In this document: piece after piece, positions 28,333-49,844 of the stretch
How the letters are laid out: each line of letters begins with the position of its first letter
Position numbering within the stretch: the stretch's first letter is position 1
Assembly: GCA_029261215.1 (NCBI GenBank)
Contig: JAJDBT010000050.1
Coordinates: 17,982-81,981 of the forward strand
DNA from: Nitrospirota bacterium
GTDB taxonomy: Bacteria > Nitrospirota > Nitrospiria > SBBL01 > JAADHI01
Reading direction: 5' to 3'
DNA length: 64,000 bases
Notes under the pieces: model-generated
What the model was told of the DNA's origin: nothing
The model's database searches: none
Seen by the model: the letters and a program-made list of their open reading frames with translations, nothing else
Translations under genes and position numbers: made by a program

Positions 28333-29685
28333 TTATTTTACCACTAGACCTCCGGGCGGAGTAGGCGGGGCCGGGTCGAGAGGAAGCCCTCCCATAACGC
28401 TAAACACATGAATCAGGGGGCGCGCATTATCTGGCGATGAATCAGGAAATCCCCGTTCACCATCTCTTTGTGAAATGAACAATCTTTTCGTTGTTGAATC
28501 ATATGCAGCACCTAAAACACCTGCAATACCATGAGGACCTATCTCAAGTGGCCAGACTGCGTAAGGTCGTATGTCCCAAGGATTTTTCTGGCCGGTCTTC
28601 ACCGAGATCATATCATTGACATCATACGCCCATACCCATGTCTTATAGGGATAAGCATGGCCCCCCTTAACTGATTCTCCTTCCGGGTTATAGCAATAAA
28701 TGGATCCGTCTCCCTTTTCTTTTCCAGCAAGACTGGGATCACTCGTTGCCGTTCCATAACAAGACACCCCGGTTCCCTGTCTCCCGATATACAAAACACT
28801 GCGGCTTCCAGGAGGAAAGATAACCCCTCTAATTTCAGTCGTCATATTAAAATACAAATTTACGGTTTCATCACCTTCCCATGTACCCAATGTAGGATGA
28901 GTAATATCATAATATAGAACCGGTGTGGCGGGAACAGGACTTTTCACGCCGAGATCATCTGGGTTAAAAACAACTCCTGCTGGCCCAAGAGAAGTTCTAC
29001 CGATAATGGAAAGACAGCAATTTCCTGTAAGCGCAGTCCCACCCAAGGCGGCTTGCCATTCGGGCGGAATCTGAGTCATAGGACCCGATACAAAACCCTG
29101 CCCGATTGTACCGACTTTATACATGCCTCGAAAATCTCCCGTTTGTGACAAGTTCAGCCCTGAAGTAAAATGTGAAAGCACGGCCACATTACCAGCGTCA
29201 TAATATCCATAGGAAGTTCCGATCAGCTTATTCCCATAAACCATCAGACCACCCATGTATACCCCCGTATCACTGGGATATACTGCGCCTCCGGCAGCAA
29301 TATCGGATAAATGACCTTCCGTAATGTCAGATAAATTCTGTAGGACACTCGCCATATTCAAATCACTCAGGTTAATACCCTTGACAGGTTGGGGGATGCT
29401 AATTTCTGCGGTCTTCTGTTCATAAATGTGATTATTGATGAACAAGGAGTTATTTGCGGGGTTGTAGGCCAAGCCGGTACGTGCGTATGCAAAACCAGCG
29501 CCTCCAGATATCGTGTCTGGTACACGGAATGCGCCCATATAAACTAAATTAGAGGACTGCAAGAGTTCAGCAGCAGATGTGATTCCCCCTGAGAATAAAA
29601 TCGCCAGCCCAATAAGCCAGACCATAATGAGTGGACTTGATTTAAATGAATAGTACCTTGTATTGGTTATCAATTCAGCCTCCAT
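28333..29685 (-). CDS. Secreted protein of unknown function with the conserved C-terminal tail
   Basis: Signal peptide (...LFSGGITSA), Gly/Tyr-rich beta-type body, ends DPAPPTPPGGLVVK. Confidence 0.75.
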   Translation of the reverse strand: MEAELITNTRYYSFKSSPLIMVWLIGLAILFSGGITSAAELLQSSNLVYMGAFRVPDTISGGAGFAYARTGLAYNPANNSLFINNHIYEQKTAEISIPQPVKGINLSDLNMASVLQNLSDITEGHLSDIAAGGAVYPSDTGVYMGGLMVYGNKLIGTSYGYYDAGNVAVLSHFTSGLNLSQTGDFRGMYKVGTIGQGFVSGPMTQIPPEWQAALGGTALTGNCCLSIIGRTSLGPAGVVFNPDDLGVKSPVPATPVLYYDITHPTLGTWEGDETVNLYFNMTTEIRGVIFPPGSRSVLYIGRQGTGVSCYGTATSDPSLAGKEKGDGSIYCYNPEGESVKGGHAYPYKTWVWAYDVNDMISVKTGQKNPWDIRPYAVWPLEIGPHGIAGVLGAAYDSTTKRLFISQRDGERGFPDSSPDNARPLIHVFSVMGGLPLDPAPPTPPGGLVVK

Positions 29686-29998
29686 AGAATATATAAAATA
29701 TAAAAACGGTCGAATCCAGTTAACATTTAGAGCGAAACGAGTTAATCAGGACATACTATAGATGTTCAGACAAGGACTACTACAGATCTCTACTTCTCTT
29801 TGTATAGACATTAAAGTGCTTCGTCAGTAAAAAATAACTGTCCTTATTTAGAATCATGACAACCCATTCGAAACAGTAGATGATCATATATCATGTTTTT
29901 AATCATTGCTCCCATATCAGTTTCCAGGGAAGATTGCATCAGATGATCCATCTGGCACATAATAATAAGATGTCTATACGCTGTCCATCTTTTTATTT

Positions 29999-31279
29999 TC
30001 ATTCTACCGAAAGTCCTCTGGGGGCACTAGGTTCCGATATATCCGATACTGAAACCTCATCCGCGCCAATATCAGGTGAAGCCCCTGTGGGACGGCTTTC
30101 CCCGTCATAATCCCTAGTAATTTCAGTGCGGGGAAGCGCCTGATCAATCGCCGCAGCAACAGCCGGGAGAAGATGTAGATCCCCCAACGCAGGGTTTAAA
30201 AACCATGAATTTTGAGCGTTAATCAAGTTATTGAACACCTCAGCACTGGCACCATCCCTGCCTTGAATAGCAGCATCAGTCAAATTATTCACAATCTCTA
30301 CATTGATGGTATTGTTAAAGCGATATTCAATGGCATTCTGAAAAGTGCCACTCATGATCAAAGTGTTATTTAATACCTTTGTCCCTGGTGAACTTGTCAC
30401 AAAAATAGCCACATCTCCGCTTTCTGACGCGCTCCTATAAAAGAAATTGTTCCGAATAATCCCGTTCTGGTGATCATGTATCTTGCTATCGAGGCCATAA
30501 GCGATACCACGCTCACAGTTAAGAAATAGATTTCCCTCACTGACACTATCCTGACTACGGTTCCACATTAAGATCGCAGGCCCGGCAGCTTGCCCTATCG
30601 GGCCACGAATGTTCTTGAATAAATTGTTACGAATAATCCAGCCTTTTCCGGTGTGAACGTCAACCCCGTTCGTATACCAGTCAGGGGCAATCGTCGTATA
30701 TTCCATTGCAGAACATTCGACAATACCATTATCAACACCTCCACCAGAGCCATCTGGATTGGCTTTAATAAACTGATCCCCAACATCAACCATGCGCACA
30801 TTACGAATAGTCGGGGCCTCAGTTCCGGCATTCAAAATAAAAGCATGTTCACTAATATCCGTAAGGGTAAAATCGGAAAAAGTAATATTCTCCGCAGCTC
30901 TAAGCCAAAACCCAAAAGACATGCTCGGATCATTCATCCCCGGCCCCGCCAATACAACATCATCACGATTTCCGGTCACGCCACGAATCACGACTCCGGT
31001 CACGCCATCAAGATTGAGAGATCGGGTAAGTCTATAGGTCCCCTGTGAAATGAAGATGGTGTCACCCGATTGAATACCATCAAAAGCTGCCTGTAACGCT
31101 GCTTCTGTAGATACTGTCCGCACATTCCCGGTCGGTGCAGAAAGAGGAAGGCAGTTCGCAATAGGAACAGCCAGCGCAAATGACAGCAGAGGCATAGAAA
31201 GGATAAAAAGAAGAACTCCGAAAAACATCAGGGCACGACACGATTTACTCCTTTTAGTTCCTCCTGAGGCTCGATTCAT
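29999..31279 (-). CDS. Secreted right-handed beta-helix protein with a choice-of-anchor-Q-like motif and the conserved tail
   Basis: Signal peptide; AALQAA...GDTIFISQGTY; IIRNNLF/IIRNNFF repeats; DLHL...AID...DYDGESRP...PDIGADE; ends DISEPSAPRGLSVE. Confidence 0.82.
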   Translation of the reverse strand: MNRASGGTKRSKSCRALMFFGVLLFILSMPLLSFALAVPIANCLPLSAPTGNVRTVSTEAALQAAFDGIQSGDTIFISQGTYRLTRSLNLDGVTGVVIRGVTGNRDDVVLAGPGMNDPSMSFGFWLRAAENITFSDFTLTDISEHAFILNAGTEAPTIRNVRMVDVGDQFIKANPDGSGGGVDNGIVECSAMEYTTIAPDWYTNGVDVHTGKGWIIRNNLFKNIRGPIGQAAGPAILMWNRSQDSVSEGNLFLNCERGIAYGLDSKIHDHQNGIIRNNFFYRSASESGDVAIFVTSSPGTKVLNNTLIMSGTFQNAIEYRFNNTINVEIVNNLTDAAIQGRDGASAEVFNNLINAQNSWFLNPALGDLHLLPAVAAAIDQALPRTEITRDYDGESRPTGASPDIGADEVSVSDISEPSAPRGLSVE

Positions 31280-31369
31280 AATCTTTCCCCAATCATAAAG
31301 ACGTCTGGGTTAAAAGCAACGACGTAATCAAAGAACTCTTCTATCATTACTGAGGTTGAAATTGTTTAT

Positions 31370-31400
31370 CGCATTTTCCAGTCACAACTGGGAAAATGCG
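31370..31400. terminator. Inverted repeat (terminator or operator)
   Basis: CGCATTTTCCAGT...ACTGGGAAAATGCG, a 13-bp stem with one bulge, about 90 nt upstream of the beta-helix gene. Confidence 0.5.
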
Positions 31401-31679
31401 CCATTTAAAATACACCTCTACATCTTACTTGTTTCACATCGTGGATGTCTTTGCTTATAGATCAGGTCACCCTTACGATTATATCAGACTTCCATTTATC
31501 TGCAGGAATGGCATGGCTCCTTAAAAAAAATCAAGCACCCCCTTCAGATAGAAGCCCTTCTATATGACTCTTACACTTCAATCGGGATTGATCTTTTACT
31601 AGACAGAGCATTGGCGACCCCTCAAGAGGCCTCAGAGCACCATGAATGATATCAAAATGATGAGGCGGGATGGCGGGAC

Positions 31680-34211: not shown

Positions 34212-34213
34212 GG

Positions 34214-35320
34214 TTAGGCACTCCCTTCATACATCTCTTCATAGGCATGGACCATTTTATCGACGGTAAAATACTCATCAAAACGAGCTCTTCCCGCCTG
34301 ACCCATTTTATTCATCATGTCCGGGTTTTCAAACAAATATAAAATACGATCGACAAGGGATTTTTCATCATCACTGGGGACAACAAATCCGGTCTCGCCT
34401 TCCTGAACAATCTCCGGATTTCCACCAACATCCGTCACGACCATCGGCAGACTTGAAGCCATCGCCTCCAAAATTGTCATTGCCGTTCCCTCGCTAAACG
34501 AAGTGAGCAAAAAGAGATCCATCACTGAAAAATAGCGATGCACATCCTCCCTGAAACCCGTGAAAATAACGTGGGAGCTCAGCTCAAGCTCAGAGACAAA
34601 CGATTCCAAATGATGTCGCTCCGGCCCATCCCCGATGATGACCAGAACGGTCTCGGGATAGGACGCTCTAATATGCCTCAGCGCCTTAATCATCATTTTC
34701 TGATTCTTAATGGGGTCAAGCCTCCCAACCGTCCCAAGCATGCGGGCACTTTCCGGAAGACCGAGTTCTTTTTTAAAATCAGTCTCCGGCGGCAAGAGGT
34801 ACCGCGTATCATCCAATCCATTGTAAATCACCTTTATTTTTTTAGCCGGAAAATTTTCATATTGGATCAGCGCGTCTTTTGTCGCCGACGAGATCGCAGT
34901 GATGTAGGCTGTGAAACAATTCAGGAGTGGATTCAATAAAACACGTTTCGGTCTTCGTACATCCGGGAAAAATCGGCCATGTTCGGTAAAGATCACCTTT
35001 GTTGACATAAAAACAGCAGCGCTGAGCCCATACACATAGGGCGTATACTGGTGACAATGCAGAACCGCCACATCGTGGTGTTTCAAAAAATGCCGGATAT
35101 CTCTAACAACGGACCAATCAAAACCTGGCTTTCGGCGAAAAGAAACAATCTGAATACCTTTTTCTATCAGCTGTTTTCCAAACGCGCCCACGGGTTCTTC
35201 TAGACAGAGGATCGAAACAATATATCTTGTTTTATCGGTGTGCTCCACCAGGTTATAGATGACCTGTTCGGCCCCTCCCATCCCCATATTAAAGGTGAGA
35301 TGTACAATATGTTTCTTCAC
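34214..35320 (-). CDS. GT4 glycosyltransferase
   Basis: MGGAEQV, FTEHG, IYNG, SEGTAMTILEAMA, TDVGGNPE. Start moved to GTG at 35320. Confidence 0.93.
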   Translation of the reverse strand: MKKHIVHLTFNMGMGGAEQVIYNLVEHTDKTRYIVSILCLEEPVGAFGKQLIEKGIQIVSFRRKPGFDWSVVRDIRHFLKHHDVAVLHCHQYTPYVYGLSAAVFMSTKVIFTEHGRFFPDVRRPKRVLLNPLLNCFTAYITAISSATKDALIQYENFPAKKIKVIYNGLDDTRYLLPPETDFKKELGLPESARMLGTVGRLDPIKNQKMMIKALRHIRASYPETVLVIIGDGPERHHLESFVSELELSSHVIFTGFREDVHRYFSVMDLFLLTSFSEGTAMTILEAMASSLPMVVTDVGGNPEIVQEGETGFVVPSDDEKSLVDRILYLFENPDMMNKMGQAGRARFDEYFTVDKMVHAYEEMYEGSA

Positions 35321-35334
35321 AGTTTCAACACTTT

Positions 35335-36528
35335 CTAGGAAATAAGCGCACCCAATTTGGCCAAGTTCGCGTCCCATGAATAATGTCTATAGACATTTTC
35401 TTTTGCTTTTTCGCCGAGCGCGATCCTTTTGGCTTCATCTTCCAGAAGCGCGACCACTGCTCTGGCAAAATGATCCTCGTCATCCGCAATGATGATATCC
35501 ATATCTTCATGTACGATTACCCCATCGCTTGCGTTAGAAGTTGCAACAATTGCATTTCCTGTTGCCATCGCTTCGAGCACTTTATTTTGAAGTCCTCTTG
35601 CTATTCGTAAAGGGATCACGCAAATATCCGCCATCCAATAGAATTCCCTGATGTCATCCACATAACCCGTCACATGGACGCCTTCTATTTTTGAGAGATT
35701 TTTAACCGCTTCTGTCGGATTGTTTCCAACAATATAAAACTGCGTATTGGGGATTTTTTCTTTTATTTTTTCAAAAACATGATTGCAAAACCAAGCCACA
35801 CCATCCTCGTTCGCAAAATAGTCCATGACCCCAGTAAATATAAGGATTGGCTTGTCATTTTTAACACTTCTTTTCTTTGGGGAAAAATATTCAAAGTCAA
35901 CGCCATTTGAGATATAAGCCAGATTTTTTGCATCAGGGTAACGCCCTTTAAACATATCGACTTCCCGTTTTGAAACAAAAAAGGAATGGTGAAACAATTG
36001 GTTGATTTTAATTTCATACTGAAGCAAGCGGCGGCGTTCAAAAGCATATACCCAGCTCAAAGGAAAGCGGCTGTAGGTTGCATATTGCCCCCATTTGTCC
36101 GAATCCAGATCTACATAATCGAGTATAAACTTGATCCCGTTCTGTTCTTTTTTTAGAAAAGCAGGGGTTTTAAAGACGTACTCTGCGACACTCGAGCAGA
36201 AACAAATCACAACGTCGATGTTGTTCTCCGCCAGAACCTTGTCGATATATTTCTGAAGCGGCGTATGATAGAAACTACACACAGAAAAAGGCTTCCCTTT
36301 CAAAATATTTTTTAAAAGGGCCACTCTTTTATTGAAATAGACTGCATGTACTTCTTTACAATATTCTTTCAAGCCCAGCACATACTGCTCGTCGGACGGC
36401 TGGTCCAATATGGTCCCAAGGTAAATATCGTGACCCTGAGATAAAAACTTAATTTCGTTAAACGACCGTATTTTATCCCCCTTATTTGGAGGATATGGAA
36501 TACGGTGTGCGATGAATAGAATGTTCAA
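35335..36528 (-). CDS. PEP-CTERM/XrtA-system GT4 glycosyltransferase (TIGR03087-like)
   Basis: Signature HRIPYPPNKGDKIRSFN, DYVDLDSDKW, ARGLQNKVLEAMA. Confidence 0.9.
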   Translation of the reverse strand: MNILFIAHRIPYPPNKGDKIRSFNEIKFLSQGHDIYLGTILDQPSDEQYVLGLKEYCKEVHAVYFNKRVALLKNILKGKPFSVCSFYHTPLQKYIDKVLAENNIDVVICFCSSVAEYVFKTPAFLKKEQNGIKFILDYVDLDSDKWGQYATYSRFPLSWVYAFERRRLLQYEIKINQLFHHSFFVSKREVDMFKGRYPDAKNLAYISNGVDFEYFSPKKRSVKNDKPILIFTGVMDYFANEDGVAWFCNHVFEKIKEKIPNTQFYIVGNNPTEAVKNLSKIEGVHVTGYVDDIREFYWMADICVIPLRIARGLQNKVLEAMATGNAIVATSNASDGVIVHEDMDIIIADDEDHFARAVVALLEDEAKRIALGEKAKENVYRHYSWDANLAKLGALIS

Positions 36529-37853
36529 GAAATCGCCCTTTCTTTTAAAAGGGATTGTAAGGCCGCCTCACGCTCAGAAAAAATAAAGCGGTTAGACACA
36601 AGACTGAGAATCAGTAAGAAATAAAATACTTCATAGGTAATCAGATTAAGAAAAACTGAACATAGAAAAAATGCAGAGATTCCACAGACAATGGCATCAT
36701 TGCCATAGGAAAGCAGAGGGTCTACATGCTCATCTTGGTGAATTTTTCTGTTGCGCCAAAACTGAGTCAAAACCCTCGCAAGAATAAGTAAATACATCAG
36801 GCCAGCCAAAATGCCACACTCAGAGCCGAGCTGTATCGCTGTGTTATGTGCAACATAAGGTTGTGTATCAGCATAATCTGGGTAAGCAACGACGAACTTA
36901 CCCAGCCCGACGCCAACAAAAGGACGATCTACCATCATTTTCAAGCCCGTTTCCCATGACTCAAGTCTCGGATTGGCCAGACCCTCTTCAGACTTCAGGG
37001 TTTCTGCGCGGTTCTTCATATCTCCGCCCTGCAATGAAAACGCGACAACTAAGGCAATGAAAGTGCCGATACCCAATAGCCTTGAACGAGACCTCACCGT
37101 AATGAAAAGGCACACAAAACCGGTCCCAAGTAAGGCGCCTCGGGACCCTGTCAAAAATATGGCATGCCATGCCCATGGAATAGCCCCCCACAAAGCATAT
37201 TTAACAAATATGCTTTTATAGTAAGACCCCATGAAATATAAAAAAGGTATCCCTACGACAAAAAGCATGCCAAAGATGTTCTCATCTATATACAGGCCTG
37301 ATCCCCCGTATTGACCGCTCGGCCCGCCAAGACGGGGTTGACCCTGCATTTGCCCTGAAAAATATTGCATATTCGCCCAGTAAATATAGTAATAAATAAT
37401 TGCAATAAAGCTCATCACCAGATAATGGAATTTTCTTTTAGTGTCTATTAGGCAGATCGCTATAAAGTAAAAAAAGTAAGCCTTATTCAGGACATCGAGT
37501 ATGCCCGCAGGATTCATCATCCCAAGACCCTTACTATCTCGAAAATCCGGATCGTAAGCGTAACGACTAAAGACATCCGAAAGATATATTGATATCCATA
37601 TGATCGCTAAAAACACATTTTGTTTGTTGTTTAACATGGAAAAATCAACTTTTTTCTGGAAGAGCGCTTTTAAAAAACCGATCATCGTGGCAAGGGAGAC
37701 ATACAAGGAAATTCGAATACCCTCAAGCACCCAGAACCAAATTGATTGAGGGGACAATATCGCAAGAAAATAATAAACCAAAACCCCGGTCCAGGCTTGC
37801 ATGATGGCAGAGGATACGACTCCAACCAGCAGGATATAAATTAGCATTTGCAA
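36525..37853 (-). CDS. O-antigen ligase/Wzy-like membrane protein (exosortase-A-associated type)
   Basis: Multiple TMs, DENIFG, TGSRGALLG, RLESW...PFVGVG, AHN. Confidence 0.85.
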   Translation of the reverse strand: MQMLIYILLVGVVSSAIMQAWTGVLVYYFLAILSPQSIWFWVLEGIRISLYVSLATMIGFLKALFQKKVDFSMLNNKQNVFLAIIWISIYLSDVFSRYAYDPDFRDSKGLGMMNPAGILDVLNKAYFFYFIAICLIDTKRKFHYLVMSFIAIIYYYIYWANMQYFSGQMQGQPRLGGPSGQYGGSGLYIDENIFGMLFVVGIPFLYFMGSYYKSIFVKYALWGAIPWAWHAIFLTGSRGALLGTGFVCLFITVRSRSRLLGIGTFIALVVAFSLQGGDMKNRAETLKSEEGLANPRLESWETGLKMMVDRPFVGVGLGKFVVAYPDYADTQPYVAHNTAIQLGSECGILAGLMYLLILARVLTQFWRNRKIHQDEHVDPLLSYGNDAIVCGISAFFLCSVFLNLITYEVFYFLLILSLVSNRFIFSEREAALQSLLKERAIS

Positions 37854-37970
37854 GCACAGCTCAAAGTAAACCTCTCATCAAAATAAGCCTTTTACGAGGA
37901 CACCGCCCTTCCACAAAAACTATTCCCCTCACTCAGATCGTAATAAATATTCCTGAAAAACAAGCGCGCT

Positions 37971-38909
37971 TTAAGAAGGGTTCTTTTTAAGAACAGCCAC
38001 TGTTCTTGAAAAAAAATACACCTGAAGCAGCAACAAGAGTCTCAATGCATCACCGATCTTCTGTATTTTTTCTTTAACTTTGTATAAAACAGCTAAGGTC
38101 GGCAAAAGATATAAAACAAACAAAAGGGCAAGCCATTTTAGATCAAACAACACCAAGGCGGCCAGACAGATCCCTGGAAAAAAAACACCGAAATAGAGCG
38201 GTATAGCGAGACTGGGGAGCTCCTTCCATTGAAATCTGTGACTGAACAAACCGATTAAATTACTTCGGCCTCTCCATATTTCCTTCGACATAAAGTGCCT
38301 CACCGTCGCGGCCTCACCCAGATGGATCACTTCGATTCTTGCGTCGGAAATGATTTTCCCATACTGCCGGATGCGGTAGGAAAAATCGACATCTTCGCAT
38401 GTGACCAAGGCTTCATTGAAACCGGAAACTGCCAGAAACTGATCTTTCCGAACAAATAAATTCATTGATTCCAACCAATCGACCTCCTGAATTTGTGTTT
38501 TTTTTTGCCGTACCAAGTACCATGTTTTTTGCACCCAGGTGGCCTCTTCTGGAATCGTTGGCGGACTGCCCCAAGCAGAGACATCCTCAGCGTCAAAATA
38601 GACTGCCGCATTCTGTAGCCATGTTTTGGAAACCAAACAGTCGGCATCCACAAAAGCAATGATCTCTCCCGTCGCGTTTCGGACCCCTAAATTCCGAAGA
38701 CCTGAGACATGTTTCTCATCGTCTCTTAAGACTTTTGCGCCATACTCTTCGGCAATCTCCCGGGTCCGGTCATCAGAACCATTGTCGACCAAAATAACTT
38801 CCAGATTGTCCTTTGGAAACACTAATTCCTGTATAGATCGTAAACACCCCGGCAGACAAGCTTCTTCGTTGTAGGCCGGTATGACAATCGACACTTTTTT
38901 CATCATCAC
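37971..38909 (-). CDS. GT2 glycosyltransferase
   Basis: VSIVIPAYNEE, VDNGSDD, RNLG, FVDADC, EDVDF; C-terminal TMs. Confidence 0.93.
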   Translation of the reverse strand: MMMKKVSIVIPAYNEEACLPGCLRSIQELVFPKDNLEVILVDNGSDDRTREIAEEYGAKVLRDDEKHVSGLRNLGVRNATGEIIAFVDADCLVSKTWLQNAAVYFDAEDVSAWGSPPTIPEEATWVQKTWYLVRQKKTQIQEVDWLESMNLFVRKDQFLAVSGFNEALVTCEDVDFSYRIRQYGKIISDARIEVIHLGEAATVRHFMSKEIWRGRSNLIGLFSHRFQWKELPSLAIPLYFGVFFPGICLAALVLFDLKWLALLFVLYLLPTLAVLYKVKEKIQKIGDALRLLLLLQVYFFSRTVAVLKKNPS

Positions 38910-40813
38910 AGCCCCATCCCGGCATTTTCAGCCAAAAAACATTCCTGATACCACAGCTCAAACATCAGCAGACTCCAAAGCACAGTCGCATAGTTGCGTT
39001 TTCGAGTTTGATGGAGGTCCCAAATGCGCCTCACGGCAGTCGGCTCAAAAAAATGATTCAGCCCCGCCGTATGCGAAAGTATGTGGCTCTCAGCAAAAGT
39101 CCGGATTTCCTTCCGGAGCCATTGCGCCAGCGGCGCAGAAAACCCCATTTTCTTTCTGTGCAAGATTTCATCTGGAAGCCTCTCGGCCAGCGATTGTTTC
39201 AAAATGTACTTCTTCTGGCCTCGATAATACTTCAAGTGTCCCGGAATCGTGGCGGCAAATTCTATCACCCGATGGTCCAAAAGCGGCGCACGCACTTCCA
39301 AAGAATTCGCCATACTCATGCGATCCACTTTCACGAGCACGTCTCCCGGCAGGTAGGATTTTAAGTCTGTGTACAGGATTTTGGAAAGATGGTCTTCGGT
39401 ATCCGCTTTATCATAATGATACTTTGTCACCGAAAATGGATCATAACCTCCAATCGCGCGTTTTGTTTCTTCATTCATGAGCGACTGCCAAAAAGCATCA
39501 TTCCCCTCAGTGTTACTCAAATAAAAACCATAATCAGATGTGTGACTGAGCGTTCCCAATAATGTTGAGCCTTTTCGCAGAACGGGGTGATTCCCAGTCG
39601 ACAAAACCCTTGATAAAAAAGGAAAAATACTCCCTCGGATAAAACCCGGAATCTTTTTTCGGATATTGTTTTCGATATCATCAATGGCATATTTTTCATA
39701 ACCCGCAAAGTTCTCATCCCCACCGTCTCCAGAAAGCGCAACTGTCACTTGCTGCCTGGCAATTTTAGAAACATAATAGGTCGGGACAGAGGATGCGTCC
39801 GCAAAAGGTTCATCAAAATAACGCACCAATTCCGGCAAAATCGCTTCAATATCCTGCTTCACCGTAAATTCATGATGATCGGTCTTGAATTTTTCAGCCA
39901 CGATACGGGCATACGCCACTTCATCGTACTCCCGTGAGTCAAAACCAATGGCGCAAGTGGTCACAGGCTTTGGCGTGTGTCCGGCCATGAAAGCCACGAC
40001 GGCGCTTGAATCAATCCCGCCGCTCAAAAAGGCGCCCAAGGGTACGTCACTGATCATCCGCATCTGAACACTTTCATCCAGCAAGTGGACGAGGTTTTCA
40101 CAAAGATCGTGTTCACTTTTTTTAGAGGTCTCCGCGAATGAGACATCCCAATACGCCTCTTTTTTGAGGCTGTTTCGGTCGCAGTACAGGGCGTAACCCG
40201 GCTCAAGCTTATAAATATTTTGATAAATGGTTTTTGGATCCGGCACATAAAGGTAGCGAAAATAATCACTCAAGGCCTCGTAATTTATTTTTTTTTCAAC
40301 GGAGGGGTCTTGCAGGATGGCCTTGATCTCCGATGCAAAAATAAAGGTCTTTCCATCAAAATAATAATACAGCGGTTTTTTCCCGATGCGGTCTCGGGCC
40401 AGAAAAAGCGTGTTGTTTTTTTTATCCCAGATGCAAAAGGCAAACATCCCCCTAAGATACTGCAGACAGGCTGGGCCATATTCTTGATAAAGCGCTAGAA
40501 TCACCTCTGTGTCACAATCACTTGAAAAAACATAGCCCTTTGCGGTCAAGTTCTCCCGAAGCTTTAAAAAATTATAGATCTCGCCGTTGAAGGTAACCCA
40601 AAGAGATTTATCGGCAGTGGACATCGGCTGGTGTCCCGACTTTGAAAGATCCAGGATGCTTAAACGGCGATGCCCAAGCCCGACAGGCCCATCCACATAC
40701 ACACCACTGTCGTCTGGCCCTCGATATGCCATCACATCACACATTGCCTTGATGATTTTTGGGGAAACCGGATGTTTTAAGTTAAGATTGTATTTTCCCG
40801 CAATACCACACAT
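38906..40813 (-). CDS. asnB: Asparagine-synthase-family glutamine amidotransferase (EPS-associated)
   Basis: MCGIAG N-terminal Cys, RGPD, HRRLSILD, FNGEIYNF, LSGGIDSS, SGDGGDE, KVDRMSMANSLEVR. Confidence 0.93.
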   Translation of the reverse strand: MCGIAGKYNLNLKHPVSPKIIKAMCDVMAYRGPDDSGVYVDGPVGLGHRRLSILDLSKSGHQPMSTADKSLWVTFNGEIYNFLKLRENLTAKGYVFSSDCDTEVILALYQEYGPACLQYLRGMFAFCIWDKKNNTLFLARDRIGKKPLYYYFDGKTFIFASEIKAILQDPSVEKKINYEALSDYFRYLYVPDPKTIYQNIYKLEPGYALYCDRNSLKKEAYWDVSFAETSKKSEHDLCENLVHLLDESVQMRMISDVPLGAFLSGGIDSSAVVAFMAGHTPKPVTTCAIGFDSREYDEVAYARIVAEKFKTDHHEFTVKQDIEAILPELVRYFDEPFADASSVPTYYVSKIARQQVTVALSGDGGDENFAGYEKYAIDDIENNIRKKIPGFIRGSIFPFLSRVLSTGNHPVLRKGSTLLGTLSHTSDYGFYLSNTEGNDAFWQSLMNEETKRAIGGYDPFSVTKYHYDKADTEDHLSKILYTDLKSYLPGDVLVKVDRMSMANSLEVRAPLLDHRVIEFAATIPGHLKYYRGQKKYILKQSLAERLPDEILHRKKMGFSAPLAQWLRKEIRTFAESHILSHTAGLNHFFEPTAVRRIWDLHQTRKRNYATVLWSLLMFELWYQECFLAENAGMGL

Positions 40814-40816
40814 AGT

Positions 40817-41920
40817 TTAAAGTCCGATATGTTTTCTTATCATCGGCCCAAGAATTTTGCTAACCGGAACCGGCAGTTTTTTCCACAATCGCATCGCAAT
40901 ATCAAACGTCCCTTTTTTTGAGTCGGGATCTCCCACTGCCTTCCCGTTCAATGCAAAATAGTGCCAATATAAGGGGACGGGCAAAGCGCCCCACTGCGCT
41001 TTAAACTTGTAGGTGCCTTCCTCCGGGGTAGAGCGGCCAAAATCAAATGCCGTGAATCCCTGCTCACAGGCATATGCTAACATCGCCCAGTACAGCAACA
41101 TATTAGGACTCAAGCGGCCATATTCCCTGAGAGAAGAAGCCCATAAATTTCTCAAGACACCTTTAAACCCAATGATAACACCACCAGCGACAGGCGTCCT
41201 CCCCTGATAGATCATACAGATGCGTGAGGATGCTTCAAAGGTTCGGAGCGTATTGCCGATCATTGCTTTGGAATGCACGGGAGAACCCAGATCCCGCATG
41301 TTAACGGCGAAAACCTTGTAAAAATCAGCCAGTAGCTCCACCCCTCCTATTTTTGATATCAGTCCTTCTTTCTGGGGTTTCTTAATCTGGCTTCTCAATT
41401 TAGCCTTGAAGGATTTCAGGAGGATCTCGGCGGTTTCAGGTAAATCGAGCACCATGCGAACCTTGTGAGATGAGGTTACCATTGGATGACTTTCAAACTG
41501 ACTGCGTTTGCCTTGAAAAATAGCCTGCAAACCCGCATGTCGTAACTCAATAGTCTCCACACCCAAACGATCTCCCTGAGCCACTGCCGCAGACAATAGG
41601 GCTTCTTCAACCGATTCTGCACTGGCCAAAATGCCGCCATCGTCAACAAAGGGCATGGAAATCAAGGCATTGCCAAAAAGAGGACTTTTAAGATGAACCA
41701 ACGGCAAGATACCTTCAATGACGGGCTTTCCCTGAGATGCCCCCTCAAGTAGGCGTCTTTCCGCGATCAAATAATAGCTCTTATGACCATAAGTTTTTTC
41801 GATGACCTCCCGCCAGCCCGAAAGATGATAGAGTGCGCCTTGTGAGTGCGTAACGACAAAGGCATCCCAAGTGTCCTCATCTCCTGCAGAAAAAGGCCTA
41901 ACAAAGATGGATTTACTCAT
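40817..41920 (-). CDS. FemAB-family protein of the XrtA/PEP-CTERM EPS system
   Basis: WDAFV, LISMPFVDDGG, NMRDLGSP, PNMLLYW, FDFGRST..EGTYKFKAQWGA. Confidence 0.9.
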   Translation of the reverse strand: MSKSIFVRPFSAGDEDTWDAFVVTHSQGALYHLSGWREVIEKTYGHKSYYLIAERRLLEGASQGKPVIEGILPLVHLKSPLFGNALISMPFVDDGGILASAESVEEALLSAAVAQGDRLGVETIELRHAGLQAIFQGKRSQFESHPMVTSSHKVRMVLDLPETAEILLKSFKAKLRSQIKKPQKEGLISKIGGVELLADFYKVFAVNMRDLGSPVHSKAMIGNTLRTFEASSRICMIYQGRTPVAGGVIIGFKGVLRNLWASSLREYGRLSPNMLLYWAMLAYACEQGFTAFDFGRSTPEEGTYKFKAQWGALPVPLYWHYFALNGKAVGDPDSKKGTFDIAMRLWKKLPVPVSKILGPMIRKHIGL

Positions 41921-42379
41921 CCGTTCATCTTGCAGGTTTCAATCACTAGATCAAGATAATCCCTGACTTTTTCAAAGGTCATGATATTCTTCCCAGAAAA
42001 AGAGCTTCTCTCGATGCTTTTTTAAATTGTTTGAATAATAAACCACATTGAGATTTACGGCTCATCAGTATAAAAACAAAACAATCCCTAAAAAGCAGCC
42101 CAAAATAAAGCCCGATGCTATACGCTAAATGCCAAGGCATCAATAACCTTCAAAAACCGGTCAACGCGACTTTACAGCTCAAATAGCATTAGAGCATGAA
42201 TCACTTACTGCAATGTGAAAAACTGTCATGCCAGAGTAGTAAAAAGATTAGCATATAAGGGGATTTATGGTAAGGCGAAACCCATCTTTAAAATTAGAAA
42301 AAACTAGACACACCTCTCTCCCACGGGTCAAGCTTGAAGTGAAGACGACACGACAACGATGCCTGGACAAAATAGGAAT

Positions 42380-43336: not shown

Positions 43337-44264
43337 TTTCTCTAATCGTCGTTTTTGCCAACATGATTTCCGGCCGGTAATCTCCGGTCTTCAATACCAT
43401 CTCTCCAAGTACACCCATCGTCACAAAATGCCCCACCAAGAAAAAAGACAAAAAAACAACACTTGGCAGCACAATGCCTGAAAGCCCGGATGAAATCAAA
43501 ACAAGGAAACAAATCAATCCCAGAACAAACACGGGTAAACTCAATAAACCAAACAAAATCATCGGATGCACGGAAAACCGTGCAAACATCTTGATCAAAA
43601 ACAGGTCAAGAAATACCCGCCAAACACGTGAAATACCATACTTGCTTTTTCCAAACTTTCGGGCATGATGGGTCACCACCATTTCCGTAATTCGAGCTCC
43701 TGCTAAAGTAGACATTGCAGGAATAAAGCGATGTAGCTCTGAATAAAGACTGACTTTTTTAATCACTTCAGCGCGATACGCCTTCAGTGAACACCCGTTA
43801 TCATGAATCGGGACACCCGTAATTTTCCCAATGAGCCAGTTAGCGACAAGGGAGGGAATGCGTCGTGAAATAAGTTTGTCCTTACGATCTTTTCGCCATC
43901 CACAAACCAGATCGTATCCCTCTTCCAATTTGTCGACGAGTCTCGGAATATCAATAGGATCATTCTGCAGATCTCCGTCCATACTAATAATGATTTCACC
44001 CTGTGCATGTTCAAATCCGGCCGCCATAGCCGCCGTTTGTCCATAATTTTTACGAAATTTGATTGCCCGAACTTCAGGGTATCGATCATGGAGTTCAGAT
44101 AACTTATGATACGTGTCATCTGAACTTCCATCATCCAAAAAAATGATTTCGTACTTCACTCTCAGGTCATCACAGACATTTTTGAGAGAAGCATGTAATG
44201 GTCCAACAGACTCTTCCTCATTATAAAGCGGGACGATAACTGAAAGATAAATATCACTAGCCAA
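43320..44264 (-). CDS. ArnC/GtrB/DPM1-like polyprenyl-phosphate glycosyltransferase (GT2)
   Basis: SVIVPLYNEE, DDGSSD, RKNYGQTAA, MDGDLQNDP, GWRKDR, HDNGCSLKAYR, ELHRFIP, GKSKYG. Confidence 0.92.
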   Translation of the reverse strand: MASDIYLSVIVPLYNEEESVGPLHASLKNVCDDLRVKYEIIFLDDGSSDDTYHKLSELHDRYPEVRAIKFRKNYGQTAAMAAGFEHAQGEIIISMDGDLQNDPIDIPRLVDKLEEGYDLVCGWRKDRKDKLISRRIPSLVANWLIGKITGVPIHDNGCSLKAYRAEVIKKVSLYSELHRFIPAMSTLAGARITEMVVTHHARKFGKSKYGISRVWRVFLDLFLIKMFARFSVHPMILFGLLSLPVFVLGLICFLVLISSGLSGIVLPSVVFLSFFLVGHFVTMGVLGEMVLKTGDYRPEIMLAKTTIRENDTHK

Positions 44265-44404
44265 GATTCTATCCTTAATTGATTATAGATCGATAATTTC
44301 TAAAAACCTGTTCAAGATATCATTACAACCTAGGGTTATGACTGAAAACACGACTCAAACCGAAGCAAGAACCTCCCGGTTCACCCAAAAATAAAACGGA
44401 GGAT

Positions 44405-45820
44405 TCAACGTGCATCCGCAAGAAAAACCTGATATCCCTCAATAGTGTAATCATATCGCACCGCATATTTACGCCACACAAGTGAAGCATTCTTAAAAAG
44501 CCACGCCTCAAGGTTTTTTGCCAAAGGCCCACGCCTGATAGGCAAAATAATCCATAGCCTCTCGTTCTTTCCATCGTATCGCTGAAACCCTTTTTCCCAC
44601 TCAACGCTATCGTCATAAGGATATCCCAATTGAGAAATTTTTGTATAATTTATATTCATATAATAATCCAATTCGGTGACATAGGACATCACCTTGTCAT
44701 TAGATCTATGCTCACTTTCAATAAATTTTGACACCTCTCTTACATCCAAACTATTTCTTCCCGTGTAATGAGAAATCGACTCTGGAAGCATACATACAAC
44801 AACCAACATAATAACGATGAGAGATGTTATTCCATAACCTAATAAACCTACTCTGACTTGCTCTAAAAAATAACCTGCAAGGACAAAAACCAGAGGATAT
44901 GCATAAAACATATAATCAGGGCGAATGGACACAAATATTGATCCAACAAGTAACGCTATGACAGGAATCATTAGACATATCACAAAAAAAAGCGCATCCA
45001 TGACACCTCGCTTAAGGATACAAATTAATCCTCCGAAGGCACAAATAACAAGAGGGGCCTGCATGTATTTTATGATCTGGAGGGTTAACTTTGCAGGACC
45101 ATACCCCCACAACTGACCAGAGCCATGCCAACCAACCGCTATCTTCAAAAAAAATGGCAAGGAGATCAGTGCTCCGATACAACCTAGCGCAAAATATATT
45201 TTTGCATTTTTCTTTAAAAACTGATTTAAACTAGATTTTTTTGTAAACAAGATAAATATAGAGAAAAGAAAACACGACACCGCCACTATTATTGAAGATA
45301 CGTGAAAAAAAATACCGATTAAGTTGAAAAACATTGCCCAAAATAAGAATACAAATTTCTCAGAGCGCATGGCTTTATAGTAGAAATAGTATGAGAGTGA
45401 CCCAAAAAAGAAAACACCAGAGTAGAAACGGCTAAACTGAGAATACCAAAGATGCCAGCTACTCAAAACAATAAGCATTGAACCAAAAAGAGCGCAATTC
45501 CTGCCAACAATATTTTTCCAAGTGACATAAAAAACAGGAATACTTACACTGCCTAGTATCATGGCAGGCAGACGAGCCGACCATTCATTTACACCAAAGA
45601 CCTTAAAGCTCGACAATATCAATATATAATATGCAGGGTTTATAAGTGATGTGTAACGCTCACTCGCCTTGGTCACAGAAAATATTTCATCTGCAGAAAG
45701 ACTCCACTCACCTAAATGATAGCTCCTTGAAATAAGCGCCAATAGTAATAATCCAGCAATCGCTGCAAACTCTTTTATCTTGGCGTAACGATCGTTAATA
45801 CCCACATCACTATTTATCAC
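44405..45820 (-). CDS. GT-C membrane glycosyltransferase (ArnT/PMT-like, GT83/GT39)
   Basis: First loop SLSADE, FGVNEWSARLP, HLWYSQFSRFY, many TMs and a periplasmic C-terminus. Confidence 0.82.
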   Translation of the reverse strand: MINSDVGINDRYAKIKEFAAIAGLLLLALISRSYHLGEWSLSADEIFSVTKASERYTSLINPAYYILILSSFKVFGVNEWSARLPAMILGSVSIPVFYVTWKNIVGRNCALFGSMLIVLSSWHLWYSQFSRFYSGVFFFGSLSYYFYYKAMRSEKFVFLFWAMFFNLIGIFFHVSSIIVAVSCFLFSIFILFTKKSSLNQFLKKNAKIYFALGCIGALISLPFFLKIAVGWHGSGQLWGYGPAKLTLQIIKYMQAPLVICAFGGLICILKRGVMDALFFVICLMIPVIALLVGSIFVSIRPDYMFYAYPLVFVLAGYFLEQVRVGLLGYGITSLIVIMLVVVCMLPESISHYTGRNSLDVREVSKFIESEHRSNDKVMSYVTELDYYMNINYTKISQLGYPYDDSVEWEKGFQRYDGKNERLWIILPIRRGPLAKNLEAWLFKNASLVWRKYAVRYDYTIEGYQVFLADAR

Positions 45821-46134
45821 GTTTATTAAAACACTTTCTTTTTCATTAGGTTTACTTAATTAGGGGGGGATGACCTAAGGTTTTGGGATATCTACAAAAC
45901 AAAAGATTGTTACTCTATATTTAAGAGGTCTCTTTGATCAAAAACCTATCCGAAGGCAAAAAATAATTGACCGGTTTTCCATGACCATTTCTCCAATCAA
46001 GCCTCGCATTTTCTGATTTTAGAAAACCTCAAATTTTGATTTGGACAATTCACATCGTTTTTTCAAAACAAACTAGGGTCGATACCATCAGTAAGCAAGA
46101 ATTCCTTCTTGCTAAAAACGGGGAGTTACATACA

Positions 46135-47553
46135 TTATTCCGGTGACACCCGGCCGTAATCATCCTGAAACCGAACGATATCATCTTCTCCCAAGTAGCT
46201 ACCGCTCTGAACCTCAACCAAGCGCAGGGGTTGGTCTGTTGCGTTTTCCAATCGATGTTTAACGCCCATAGGGACAAAAGTACTTTGATTTGTTTGGATG
46301 GTATAAACGCTCTCCCCGCAAGTCACGGTCGCAACACCCTCAACCACCACCCAATGTTCGCTGCGTTTATGGTGCATCTGCAAGGAAAGCTTTGCCCCTG
46401 GATGAACCATAATTTTTTTGATTTTATATCCAGGCCCTTCTTCTAAAACAGTATAGCTCCCCCAAGCACGAATAACCGTTTTGTGGACTCGATGGGTATC
46501 GCCTTCCCCAAGCTTTAGAAGCTCGACGACTTTTTTCACATCTTGTGCATGGTCTTTGCTGCAAACAAGTGTTGCGTCATCTGTATCTGCAACCACAACA
46601 TTATCCAGTCCAACCACCGCCACGACACGGTTTTTGGCATAAATCGTGCTGTTTCGGCTCCCGACATTGATGACATTTCCAGTCACGATGTTACCCTCTT
46701 CATCTTTCGGGATCACTTCGTCTAGTGCGTTCCATGAACCCACGTCTTCCCAACCAATATCTGTGGGAATGACCACCAAATTCTCGGACTTTTCAAGAAC
46801 ACCATAGTCAATTGAAATCGCGGGTAAGGTCGCGTAAATCCGTTTTAGGGTTTCCTGCTCGGATGGAGTATCAAAGCTTTCTTCTATTTGCTGAAGTCCT
46901 TCTGACAATTCTGGCATAAACCGCTCAATCTCTTTCAAAATCGTCGAGACTTTCCAAATAAAAATACCCGTATTCCAAAAAGTACTTTTATCCAAGAGAT
47001 ATTTTTCTGCTACTTGCTTTTCCGGCTTTTCGATAAAACGTTCGACTGATCGGATGCCTTGGGAACCCGGAAGGAGTTCTCCTGCCTGAATATACCCATA
47101 GGCCGTCTCCGGACGGTTTGGGATAGCTCCCAGGGTTACCAGATGTCCCTTCTGTGCCGCATCCGCAGCGTGTTGCAGGATCTGCTTAAAACCCTTTTCA
47201 TCCCTGATAAAGTGGTCAGCTGAAAGGATAATCATAACACCTTCCGGATCGATTCGGCGTAATGAAATCGCCGCTAAAGCAATCGCGGCAGCCGTATTCT
47301 TCCTTTCAGGTTCCGAGATATAATTAAGACGCTTGCTTGTATCATTCGTCATTTGAAAACGAATTTGTTCGAGTTGCTGAGGATTGGTTACAATATAGAC
47401 TTGATCTATGGGAATCAAATCCGAAACTCTTGAAAGCGTTGCTTGTATCAGCGTTTGATTTCCGAATATTTTTAGAAGCTGTTTCGGATATTCTTCACGG
47501 CTCAAAGGCCAGAATCGCGTCCCGCTGCCCCCTGCCAAGATTACACAGTACAA
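46135..47553 (-). CDS. manC: Mannose-1-phosphate guanylyltransferase / mannose-6-phosphate isomerase
   Basis: ILAGGSGTRFWPLSR...PKQL, EP...NTA, ADH, YGYI, SIDYGVLEK, C-terminal cupin LSLQMHHKRSEHWVVV; AGGAGG RBS before TTG. Confidence 0.96.
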   Translation of the reverse strand: MYCVILAGGSGTRFWPLSREEYPKQLLKIFGNQTLIQATLSRVSDLIPIDQVYIVTNPQQLEQIRFQMTNDTSKRLNYISEPERKNTAAAIALAAISLRRIDPEGVMIILSADHFIRDEKGFKQILQHAADAAQKGHLVTLGAIPNRPETAYGYIQAGELLPGSQGIRSVERFIEKPEKQVAEKYLLDKSTFWNTGIFIWKVSTILKEIERFMPELSEGLQQIEESFDTPSEQETLKRIYATLPAISIDYGVLEKSENLVVIPTDIGWEDVGSWNALDEVIPKDEEGNIVTGNVINVGSRNSTIYAKNRVVAVVGLDNVVVADTDDATLVCSKDHAQDVKKVVELLKLGEGDTHRVHKTVIRAWGSYTVLEEGPGYKIKKIMVHPGAKLSLQMHHKRSEHWVVVEGVATVTCGESVYTIQTNQSTFVPMGVKHRLENATDQPLRLVEVQSGSYLGEDDIVRFQDDYGRVSPE

Positions 47554-47656
47554 TTAACCTGCCTCCTTCATTTCCGTGAATCGAGATCTAATACAGTAGA
47601 AGAGTAAATAACAGACTACAGAGTGAAATTCTTTTTACAAAGGATAATTTCTGAAA

Positions 47657-47697
47657 AAATTCCTACGAGAGATCATTTTGACATCTCGTAGGAATTT
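47657..47697 (-). terminator. Rho-independent terminator of the 47746 gene
   Basis: Perfect 14-bp inverted repeat AAATTCCTACGAGA / TCTCGTAGGAATTT with a T-run on the minus strand, about 50 nt after the stop. Confidence 0.78.
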
Positions 47698-47745
47698 GAA
47701 TCATCACTAAACAATAAATTGGAAAAATCAAAACTAAACATCACA

Positions 47746-48894
47746 CTACTTAACAATCAAACCTACAGGAGAATTCGGCGGGATTGCATCTCCAGACGGA
47801 GTTCGCAAAGTCATCACACCTTTTATATGCTGATATGCATCTTTTGCGATAGCATCTTCTCCATAGCCTGAAAATACCATCCATACTGACAAGCCATCAG
47901 GGCTAATCCAATTTGCAGGAAACTGGCAAAAATACATGTTGTCACTGCCCATCCAGTCATCCGTATAGTTGACTGTCGTCCAGGGGCCCCACGGCTCTGG
48001 CGCATCAAAAACACCCAGCCCCCCAGCGGCTATCTCTGAAGGTCTCGAATCATGTGTTTTACACATGAGATATCGCTTCAATACGGGGTTGTAAACAACA
48101 GAAGGACTGTCCATAAGTTTTCCATTCGTATCCGTAAAAACAGCTCCATCCTGACTGATATCGCTCGTCCACATTGCATTGCCATTACCATCTAAACCTT
48201 GAAAAAATTCATAGGCCGAGCGATTTTCGATTTTGTCCTTCAAAACCCTCGCCATACTCACGCGTGTGGGTAAAGCTGAGCTGCCACCCGACCCATCAGG
48301 TGCATATATATACACATAATTGTCTCGAGCACCAGAGTACCCAGGGCCAAAATTTAAAAAGGTGGGTTTGCTAAATCCGTCGGTGTATTTAAAAAAAGAG
48401 GTACCACTCAACTGCCAGGTCGCTCCCATATCAGTAGACTTTGCAAGCCACGTTTCTTCCCAGGGTGTCCAGTTGGAACCTAATCCGTGCCACATATAGA
48501 GGACGCTACCCAAGGAGAGCATTCCGACAGACTTGCCCCCAAAAGTAGCTTCATTGAGCCCATTTTTCCCGCCCCATATATTTTGAGAAGTAAAATTTTC
48601 CGGTGATCCGACAATACGCGCAACGCCAAGGCTCACACGCCCGTCTTGATTCGTTCCTCCCATACCGCCACCATCACCCCACGTGGCATACATATTGCCG
48701 TCTTGAGCCCAAGTTGATGCCCAATTATCACTTCCTGGGGCAAGTCTCAACAAGGTAGACCCATCAAAGGTAATACCACTAATGACTGGACTGGGGGGAT
48801 ATGGAGGACTTGCTTCTGTGCTTCCGGATAAAAAAACTGCAACCAATGAGGGCACAATGAGAGCCATTAATATGATTTTATAATATGTCTTCAT
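47746..48894 (-). CDS. Secreted DUF4185-like putative glycoside hydrolase with the conserved tail
   Basis: Signal peptide MKTYYK...STEA; GSDNW..TW..DG..Y..WGDGGG; Asp-box STDMGATW; DAPEPWGPW; ends DAIPPNSPVGLIVK. Alternative start at 48942. Confidence 0.7.
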   Translation of the reverse strand: MKTYYKIILMALIVPSLVAVFLSGSTEASPPYPPSPVISGITFDGSTLLRLAPGSDNWASTWAQDGNMYATWGDGGGMGGTNQDGRVSLGVARIVGSPENFTSQNIWGGKNGLNEATFGGKSVGMLSLGSVLYMWHGLGSNWTPWEETWLAKSTDMGATWQLSGTSFFKYTDGFSKPTFLNFGPGYSGARDNYVYIYAPDGSGGSSALPTRVSMARVLKDKIENRSAYEFFQGLDGNGNAMWTSDISQDGAVFTDTNGKLMDSPSVVYNPVLKRYLMCKTHDSRPSEIAAGGLGVFDAPEPWGPWTTVNYTDDWMGSDNMYFCQFPANWISPDGLSVWMVFSGYGEDAIAKDAYQHIKGVMTLRTPSGDAIPPNSPVGLIVK

Positions 48895-49036
48895 AATAGT
48901 AAGATTCCTCGTATTTATAATATAATAAGCTACCGTATTCATCCCATTTAATATTTTAAATATAGCATGAGATTAAGACACCACAAAAAACAAAGAGAAT
49001 ATTAGAGATTAAGAAAAAATATTGATCGGACTTTCT

Positions 49037-49813: not shown

Positions 49814-49844
49814 TTGACCTCCTTCTTTGATGGAGGGTATTGAC

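Follow-up and report, generated by a model that had tools for sequence, protein, structure and literature searches.

A 64,000-nucleotide stretch of DNA from a Nitrospirota bacterium (assembly GCA_029261215.1, contig JAJDBT010000050.1, positions 17,982 to 81,981; hereafter the window, numbered from its first letter) encodes three secreted proteins, termed A, B, and C, whose bodies are mutually unrelated and which all end in the same short tail, resembling the first strand (strand A) of a fibronectin type III (FN3) domain. The tail is conserved, stands in fixed register at the end of many homologues, and is unpacked in models of the monomers; matching FN3 domains that lack strand A (heads) are found in other exported proteins, and genes for heads and tails are neighbours in several lineages. 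In the reading that we regard as the best one, and to which a probability of roughly 0.55 is given, the tail would be a donor strand by which matrix enzymes dock onto the strand-A-less FN3 heads of anchored proteins.

Three secreted proteins with one C-terminal tail

All three genes lie on the minus strand. Gene A (28333..29685), an open reading frame (ORF) of an unnamed family, encodes a secreted, all-β, propeller-like protein of 450 amino acids that ends in DPAPPTPPGGLVVK, followed by TAA (28333..28377); gene B (29999..31279) encodes a secreted right-handed β-helix of 426 amino acids, polysaccharide-lyase-like according to PF13229 and Foldseek, that ends in DISEPSAPRGLSVE, followed by TGA (29999..30043); and gene C (47746..48942) encodes a secreted DUF4185 (GH183-like, PF13810) protein of 398 amino acids that ends in DAIPPNSPVGLIVK, followed by TAG (47746..47790). 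Signal peptides at the N-termini were recognized by visual inspection of the sequences. A first-pass annotation, made from the letters of the window alone, had described three different secreted proteins with a common C-terminal tail, and the coordinates, the tails, and the unrelatedness of the bodies that it gave all hold. Downstream of each tail stop codon, the DNA is AT-rich and full of stops—with a terminator-like hairpin and T-run after C in addition—so that the three tails are true C-termini; read-through or a frameshift into a hidden FN3 domain was ruled out by the three different stop codons together with these downstream stops.

Protein A matches no Pfam or NCBIfam family, and its AlphaFold2 (AF2) model, all-β and with a predicted local distance difference test (pLDDT) value of 85.7, retrieved only generic WD40-like propellers (TM-score ~0.3) from the PDB with Foldseek; the ESM Atlas returned a hypothetical protein, and none of these four sources yielded a specific name. 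Protein B scores 30.2 bits against PF13229 (cut-off 25.9), and its AF2 model (pLDDT 89.3) is closest in Foldseek to the pectate lyase Pel9A (1ru4; E 2e-8, TMq 0.61), with further matches (among them 9ozl, 6kfn, and 5gkq) to RbmB, the lyase of the Vibrio polysaccharide VPS, and to PL6 and alginate lyases, at sequence identities of 13–16%. The modelled fold of B is thus a parallel β-helix like those of the PL9, PL6, and RbmB lyases, and a lyase activity is probable. Protein C belongs to the DUF4185/GH183-like family (PF13810, 47.9 bits against a cut-off of 39.5), its catalysis and substrate being putative; the family includes endo-D-arabinanases, as characterised in PMC10115798.

The genome (3,369,429 bases in 125 contigs, 97% complete), in which A, B, and C are all on contig C70, was scanned in all six frames, over every stop-to-stop frame of at least 80 residues, with the regular expression (regex) proposed in the first-pass annotation and with a looser form. 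Exactly three C-termini matched either form, those of A, B, and C; the core P..P.GL.[VILA] was found at six other places, all internal and none FN3-like. The consensus of the tail, D-x-x-P-P-x-x-P-x-[GN]-L-x-[VI]-x(1-5)-COOH, describes a short Pro-rich linker and one β-strand. Pfam finds no fn3 domain (PF00041) in A, B, or C. The suggested resemblance to strand A is nevertheless borne out by complete domains: an internal FN3 of a protein on contig C109 aligns to the Pfam fn3 model from its position 1, at ..STPTNIL.., and strands of the type DTTPPLPPQGV precede internal copies of the FN3 subtype to which the heads belong. Gauged against the C109 domain, the tail consists of the linker and roughly the first 10 positions of the fn3 model. 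It shares, that is, the linker and strand-A sequence of enzyme–FN3 architectures, with the difference that the protein stops after strand A and ~70 of the ~84 model positions are absent.

PEP-CTERM/exosortase signals are likewise C-terminal on secreted proteins, and the exopolysaccharide locus in the window is of the XrtA type. The tails are distinct from such signals, as had been maintained: they have no PEP motif, no hydrophobic stretch or transmembrane (TM) helix, and no basic cluster. XrtA and six PEP-CTERM matches (TIGR02595) are found elsewhere in the genome, the six matches on contigs C3, C18 (two), C76, C86, and C93; none of the six is A, B, or C, and none falls at these genes on C70. 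A second exosortase-like gene, on C93, scores 127 bits, below the XrtA cut-off. No dockerin match was found in A, B, or C, and the tail has only 12–14 residues, against the ~70 amino acids of that domain.

In the AF2 model of B, pLDDT is below 50 at residues 418–426; in that of A, the last 20 residues have block means of 57 and 56, with residues 436–439 below 50. A tail that is conserved, yet of low pLDDT, behaves as a conserved linear motif, apparently outside the enzyme's own fold. The same models bear on the notion that the tail folds back, as a cap or edge strand, against the catalytic domain of the protein that carries it, which was considered solely because β-helices and propellers often have capping strands: the tail is common to at least three unrelated folds, and AF2, given alignments that include the conserved tail, still places it at such low values in B and at ~56 in A, leaving this notion scarcely credible.

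Recurrence of the tail among homologues

Homologues were collected for each of the three proteins: 1348 for B at E ≤ 1e-3, 1345 for C, and 2505 relatives for A at E ≤ 1e-3 (phmmer), from which the 120 listed for B, 120 listed for C, and 150 representatives for A were assessed. By regex, the tail ends 76 of the 120 B homologues (in the form ...GADE(F/Y), a short linker, and PPxAPxNLR(I/V)xx before the stop), 27 of the 120 C homologues, and 13 of the 150 A representatives, with a few more of the last recognized by eye. Among 80 B homologues read from genome contigs, at least 19 are tail-bearing by eye, the 13 found with a strict regex on the longest ORF being an undercount.

The motif occurs 182 times in these 390 homologues, and its position is bimodal: 116 occurrences are 3–8 residues from the end, 59 are more than 70 from the end, and only 7 are at 10–70—that is, the proteins stop directly after strand A or whole domains later, and almost never in between. 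The earlier argument against chance truncation is thus upheld. The tail extends beyond its Leu by 3 residues in 22 cases, 4 in 60 (the mode), 5 in 18, 6 in 8, 7 in 6, and 8 in 2; the last residue is variable (P, R, K, Q, S, and others), and, in an alignment of 59 sequences that are only ~50% identical, conservation reaches at least 90% at P417 and P420 of B. In genomes of the same class, the tail was also found on members of other families, namely Polysacc_lyase, PL14 (weak), Peptidase_M23, 3-keto-disaccharide hydrolase, FG-GAP, Beta_helix, Pect-lyase_RHGA_epim, and HepII_C, as well as on several proteins without any family match; a signal-peptide-like N-terminus was seen, by a crude heuristic, in 18 of 20 of these relatives. 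Taken as sequences, these tails are confirmed as a real and widespread module of fixed register, equal to FN3 strand A and far beyond chance, and most of the exported enzymes that bear it appear to be glycan-degrading.

Fixed register bears in turn on the suspicion that the tail is an inert evolutionary stub of a lost FN3 domain, with the linker and first strand persisting because breaks by recombination or deletion tend to fall at the domain boundary. Modular shuffling at Pro-rich linkers is common. The first-pass annotation had itself counted orthologues that continue into a full FN3 domain as evidence against its reading. In a minority of homologues (P0044, L044, and Big_7 forms), the place of the tail is indeed taken by a whole FN3 or Ig domain, in an architecture that is rarer than the tail end. 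A neutral stub should, however, decay and end variably, yet 116 of the 123 occurrences within 70 residues of the end stand at 3–8, the two prolines of B have been kept through divergence to ~50% identity, and at one locus, as described below, unrelated enzymes that replaced one another still bear the tail; on these grounds, an inert remnant is improbable.

The pattern of conservation also speaks to the proposal that the tail is a modification site, for O-glycosylation by an O-antigen-ligase-like protein of the locus, or else a Pro-rich cap against tail-specific proteases. Each tail contains Ser or Thr beside Pro (PTPP, PSAP, and NSPV), Pro/Ala/Ser-rich stretches are targets of PglL-type enzymes, and the locus encodes a TIGR03097-like putative O-glycosylation ligase, albeit at 109 bits, below the cut-off of 188. 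What is best conserved, however, is the two prolines and the strand [GN]-L-x-[VI] rather than the Ser or Thr; tails are also present in genomes and loci without this ligase context, and the adjacency of tail genes to head genes is left unexplained, so that a site of this kind is quite improbable.

Several further observations concern the tail-bearing genes themselves. In L040, an Acidobacteriota metagenome-assembled genome, a B gene followed by an A gene is found on one strand, the two being adjacent and both tailed (B ending in ..APQAPVNLHIVI and A in ..APPAAPTGVHVAQ, each directly before the stop); given this pair and the absence of B from 60 other genomes of the class to which the present genome belongs, the pair looks horizontally acquired. 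P0304 and L084 are fusions of A and B. Tail genes often stand in adjacent pairs—in L185 (G055), L187 (G078), L190 (G057), L186 (G098), and L048 (G015)—with product sizes of, for example, 880 + 543, 545 + 864, and 381 + at least 310 amino acids. In addition, B, C, and A homologues of a Chloroflexi type (L047, L061, L062, L068, and L072; P0003, P0066, P0115, and P0325) carry another short tail at the same position, [YF]-[LM]-P-[LMIT]-[VIL]-x-[RQ], as in ..VYLPLVRR, ..LFLPAIRR, ..IYLPLLTR, and ..NYLPMMRRR, each ending at the stop, which could represent a second, lineage-specific C-terminal tag.

FN3 heads without strand A and their link to the tails

FN3 proteins without strand A had been predicted as partners of the tail, and three were found in the genome and many elsewhere, linked to tails by adjacency and co-occurrence. 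The three, named here after their contigs, are C98 (C98:50900-53218, minus strand; 773 amino acids; mature start after ..AFA at ENATLTWNPNTESDLSGY) and C63 (C63:8269-9786, plus strand; 506 amino acids, stop to stop; mature start after ..GFA at GEATLSWLPNTEPDLAGY), both outside the window, and C109 (C109:1810-5157, plus strand; 1116 amino acids; mature start after ..ALA at NTATLSWNANTESDLAGY). In each of them, the first FN3 opens at strand B, 2–3 residues past the predicted AxA-type signal cleavage site, and these heads are the only three domains of the genome with the FN3 subtype W..N.E.DL.GY. Against Pfam fn3, the C98 and C63 heads score 37.7 and 27.8 bits (cut-off 25) and align only from model positions 15 and 16, so that neither is a complete PF00041 domain including strand A, whereas the internal FN3s of the genome align from positions 1–4. 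As judged from their sequences, the heads would be acceptors of the kind known from donor-strand systems, that is, Ig-like folds without one edge strand.

A search with the head returned 408 homologues at E ≤ 1e-3, of which 120 were listed, the named sources including Nitrospirae/Nitrospiria, Manganitrophaceae, Scalindua, Omnitrophica, and Terriglobia, among others. A regex matched 66 of the 120, with the head directly after the signal peptide in 54 and internal in 12; the remaining 54, inspected by eye, are mostly an inserted-loop variant, likewise right after the signal peptide. Of the 12 internal heads, 9 are preceded by a strand A of the type (D)TTPPxxPxG(L/V)—that is, by the tail motif—as in DTTPPLPPQGV.., GDTTPPLAPQGL.., and DTPPAPPGNL... 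The spacing from Leu to Trp in intact domains is 12 residues in 12 of 17 cases, with a range of 9–14; in the split pair here it is 3 + 6 = 9, which fits a cut in the A–B turn.

The C98 and C63 head proteins end in SGGGGC(G/A)MI.P..G.PP.PG.AA.ML, a TM helix, and a KK/RK cluster, a combination restricted to these two in the genome and seen as the same Gly/Cys C-terminal signal in many of the head homologues P0391-P0510. This anchor gave no NCBIfam sorting-domain match at E ≤ 0.01, and the Gly/Cys signal may represent a hitherto undescribed type of signal, with a Cys, for sorting or anchoring. The C109 head protein has no membrane anchor and three internal complete FN3 domains; it also contains a repeated ..GGNEGS.GSMYTVI.LK.. 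module, which precedes the tails of P0043 and P0044 as well, and its C-terminal β-helix-like region ends ..DIGSDESQ, with the stop at the GADE-equivalent point where the tail of B would start. In P0498 (844 amino acids, from a metagenome), a strand-A-less head follows the signal peptide and a tail, ..DTVPPAAPQGFVIISQ, forms the C-terminus; if heads bind tails, this and other proteins with both could polymerise head-to-tail. In P0451 (951 amino acids) and P0442, the strand-A-less head FN3 lies within the protein or at its C-terminus, as does ..NTNSDILAWDPNTEGDLAGY.. at residue 880, so that the rule placing such domains right after the signal peptide is not absolute.

Neighbourhoods were viewed in 22 regions around head genes of related genomes, and the head was re-identified in 17; no result was counted from the other five (L196, L201, L204, L207, and L210), where the regex missed it. 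A tail gene lies immediately downstream of the head gene, on the same strand, in G066, G070, G072, G074, G080, and G083, and 2.8 kb downstream in G054. Tails matched by regex in L205 (..LPIYPVQVEA), L093, and L122 were judged false, and the Acidobacteriota head loci, at 3.2 kb, are too short for adjacency to be seen. Four of these genomes (G070, G072, G074, and G080) are of one genus, and their head proteins are 92–95% identical. The tail proteins encoded downstream diverge far more: identity between those of G072 and G080 is 28%, and neither that of G070 nor that of G074 has a match among the others at E ≤ 1e-3. Beside a conserved anchor gene, one enzyme has thus been replaced by another, with retention of the tail.

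Among 61 genomes of the class, a head match at E ≤ 1e-6 was found in 44. The tail census relied on one narrow DNA pattern (PP, L/F, V/I/M, and a single residue ahead of the stop codon), which misses most tails, including that of B, and is noisy, with 37 hits and, in the columns of the reversed-pattern control, a comparable number (about two dozen); only hits ending ORFs of at least 226 amino acids were kept, and those ending TGG, those with internal stops, and ten in ORFs of 11–99 amino acids were dropped. ORF-verified tails remained in 11 of the 61 genomes: 11 of the 44 head-positive and none of the 17 head-negative ones, a hypergeometric probability of 0.018 that is overstated, since related genomes do not count as independent and those without a head are smaller. 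In other phyla, a verified strand-A-less head was found in 12 of 16 genomes with a tailed B or A homologue, compared with 4 of 28 with a tail-less B, a contrast that is confounded with phylogeny.

Pairing was also modelled by predicting B residues 397–426 and C98 head residues 48–125 together, each with its own alignment. The co-fold scored 0.56 (runs 0.57, 0.56, and 0.56), compared with 0.02 for the best of three controls; at least 88% of contacts recur between the runs, and the pLDDT of the partner is at least 80. Of 80 solved complexes, 58 reach the pass mark, as do 2 of 110 mismatched pairs, counts that hold only roughly here given the use of own alignments; passes at 0.60 or under comprise only 7 of the 80 solved complexes and both of the passing mismatches. 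The co-fold that the first-pass annotation had suggested thus gave a weak pass for one pair, which weakly supports pairing of head and tail.

From these observations, a mechanism may be proposed. The tail would be a free-standing FN3 strand A, carried at the C-terminus of Sec-exported enzymes, that remains unfolded after export and pairs in trans with strand B where it lies exposed at the edge of an N-terminal, strand-A-less FN3 head, a donor-strand complementation of a naturally split FN3. Since the heads sit on multi-FN3 proteins—two of the three here with the Gly/Cys-rich signal, TM helix, and basic anchor—enzymes that remodel the matrix, in this case A, B, and C of the exopolysaccharide locus, would be held on an anchored stalk instead of diffusing away. 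That head and tail bind, that the bound tail adopts the geometry of strand A, and where in the cell this would occur are all parts of the proposal. No chaperone, usher, or processing protease is obvious beside the head or tail genes viewed, although no dedicated search for one was made.

Several points weigh against donor-strand docking. The heads of the genome itself (C63, C98, and C109) are not near the tails on C70, and nothing tail-like flanks them; 10 of the 17 re-identified head regions have no tail gene nearby. Heads are also commoner than tails (44 of 61 genomes compared with 11 of 61 by the narrow pattern, and B in only 1 of 61), so that heads must have roles without these enzymes. 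Among the 16 genomes of other phyla with a tailed homologue, four of unestablished completeness (G002, G003, G009, and G016) yielded no strand-A-less head with either a single query or a 17-sequence profile. Furthermore, an FN3 without strand A might be stable on its own, the co-fold may have passed because the model remembers whole FN3 folds, and the whole FN3 or Ig domains at the junction in a minority of homologues mean that the tail could stem from domain loss.

Some of the same observations would be accommodated if the tail were a tag for sorting, export, or retention that some other machinery reads, its likeness to FN3 reflecting its origin and not its partner; candidate readers would be a translocon of the outer membrane, a receptor of TPR, SH3, or PDZ-like type in the machinery for polysaccharide export, or a processing enzyme. 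The tail stands where B homologues of other lineages have known modules for anchoring or extension (SLH, Big_7, a whole FN3, or a Gly/Cys signal with a TM helix and Arg cluster), a position that speaks for docking as well as for a tag. Residues 369–409 of B, ahead of the tail, resemble a choice-of-anchor Q domain (NF041518) below its cut-off (22.5 against 25 bits, E 1e-4; for the meaning of the term, see bioRxiv 10.1101/2023.03.06.531300). The tail is unfolded in the models and acts as a linear motif, all three tails here belong to one exopolysaccharide locus with none beside a head, and the Chloroflexi homologues have a different short tail at the same position. Such a tag, however, leaves unexplained both the repeated placement of a tail gene directly downstream of a head gene with swapping of the enzyme and why the motif is the very strand that exactly this FN3 subtype lacks; in the material examined, nothing that could serve as receptor or machinery was seen to co-vary with the tail. 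A tag of this kind is therefore unlikely, though it deserves to be kept in view, and docking onto the heads is the reading carried forward.

Genomic setting and comparison with known systems

The core of the exopolysaccharide locus, of the XrtA/PEP-CTERM type, occupies 34214..41920 on the minus strand, as recognized by NCBIfam TIGR03087 (423 bits), TIGR03019 (302 bits), TIGR03108, and TIGR03097, and encodes stp2-like and stp1 glycosyltransferases, an O-antigen-ligase-like protein, a GT2 protein, an EpsI-type amidotransferase, and a FemAB-like protein. Further genes for sugar-nucleotide, flippase, and acyl-transfer functions lie at 42380-56512, and a TIGR03016 outer-membrane protein is encoded at 62039-63349. 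The A/B pair is flanked, on the minus strand, by genes for a 993-amino-acid protein whose N-terminus is signal-like and which matches neither Pfam nor NCBIfam (23395-26376) and an 843-amino-acid PcRGLX-like (rhamnogalacturonan-lyase-like) protein without an obvious signal peptide (31680-34211), neither of which has a tail. The assignment of the locus to the exosortase-A type was correct for this genome, but with B in only one of the 61 related genomes the link between tails and such loci is not general.

The proposed system has features of two that are well known. In the donor-strand complementation of pili (chaperone-usher and type V), an Ig-like fold without an edge strand is completed by a strand of another polypeptide, and the likeness lies in the proposed completion of such a fold by a short donated strand. 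In pili, however, it is the last strand (G) that is missing, whereas here it is the first (A); the strand is donated by an N-terminal extension (a C-terminal one in type V pili) of the next subunit of identical type, whereas here the C-terminus of unrelated enzymes would donate it; and assembly depends on a chaperone and usher or on a protease, none of which is evident in this system, known as it is from sequences. The dockerin, in turn, is a folded Ca-binding domain of ~70 amino acids, a duplicated EF-hand-like structure that binds a complete cohesin. Shared with cohesin–dockerin are a portable C-terminal module on varied glycan-active enzymes, a matching anchored multi-domain scaffold, and interchangeable enzyme genes; by contrast, the tag here is ~12 residues long and unfolded, and would join the fold of its partner, and each anchor protein has one head rather than an array. 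The tail–head system belongs to neither of these families; it would share its mode of action with the pili and its role with cohesin–dockerin.

Engineered split FN3 or Ig tags, as in the work of Dutta et al. and in SpyTag/SpyCatcher, reportedly reassemble a loop-cut FN3 or Ig-like domain from two pieces. Those are laboratory constructs, whereas a natural and widespread split at the A–B turn would be seen here; as the last tail residue is not conserved, there is no sign of isopeptide chemistry.

A broader proposition, which is tentative and has somewhat less than an even chance, is that an FN3 split in nature serves many uncultured diderms (the named homologues being from Nitrospirota, Acidobacteriota, Rokuibacteriota, and Binatia) as a general means of docking interchangeable secreted enzymes, in which a strand-A tag of ~12 residues would complete the N-terminal FN3 of membrane-anchored stalks, a non-cellulosomal analogue of cohesin–dockerin. 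No description of the tail or of split-FN3 docking was found in the open-access full texts searched. If docking of this kind takes place, it would constitute a new and apparently widespread way of holding matrix-degrading and matrix-remodelling enzymes at the cell surface, and would explain both the hundreds of "fibronectin type III domain-containing" proteins that start at strand B and the many hypothetical enzymes with PPxxPxNLxV at their C-termini. It would further offer protein engineering a natural, very small, and genetically encodable peptide/domain pair and, for uncultured Nitrospirota, Acidobacteriota, and their kin, would provide a rule for annotating secreted enzymes that stay bound to the cell.

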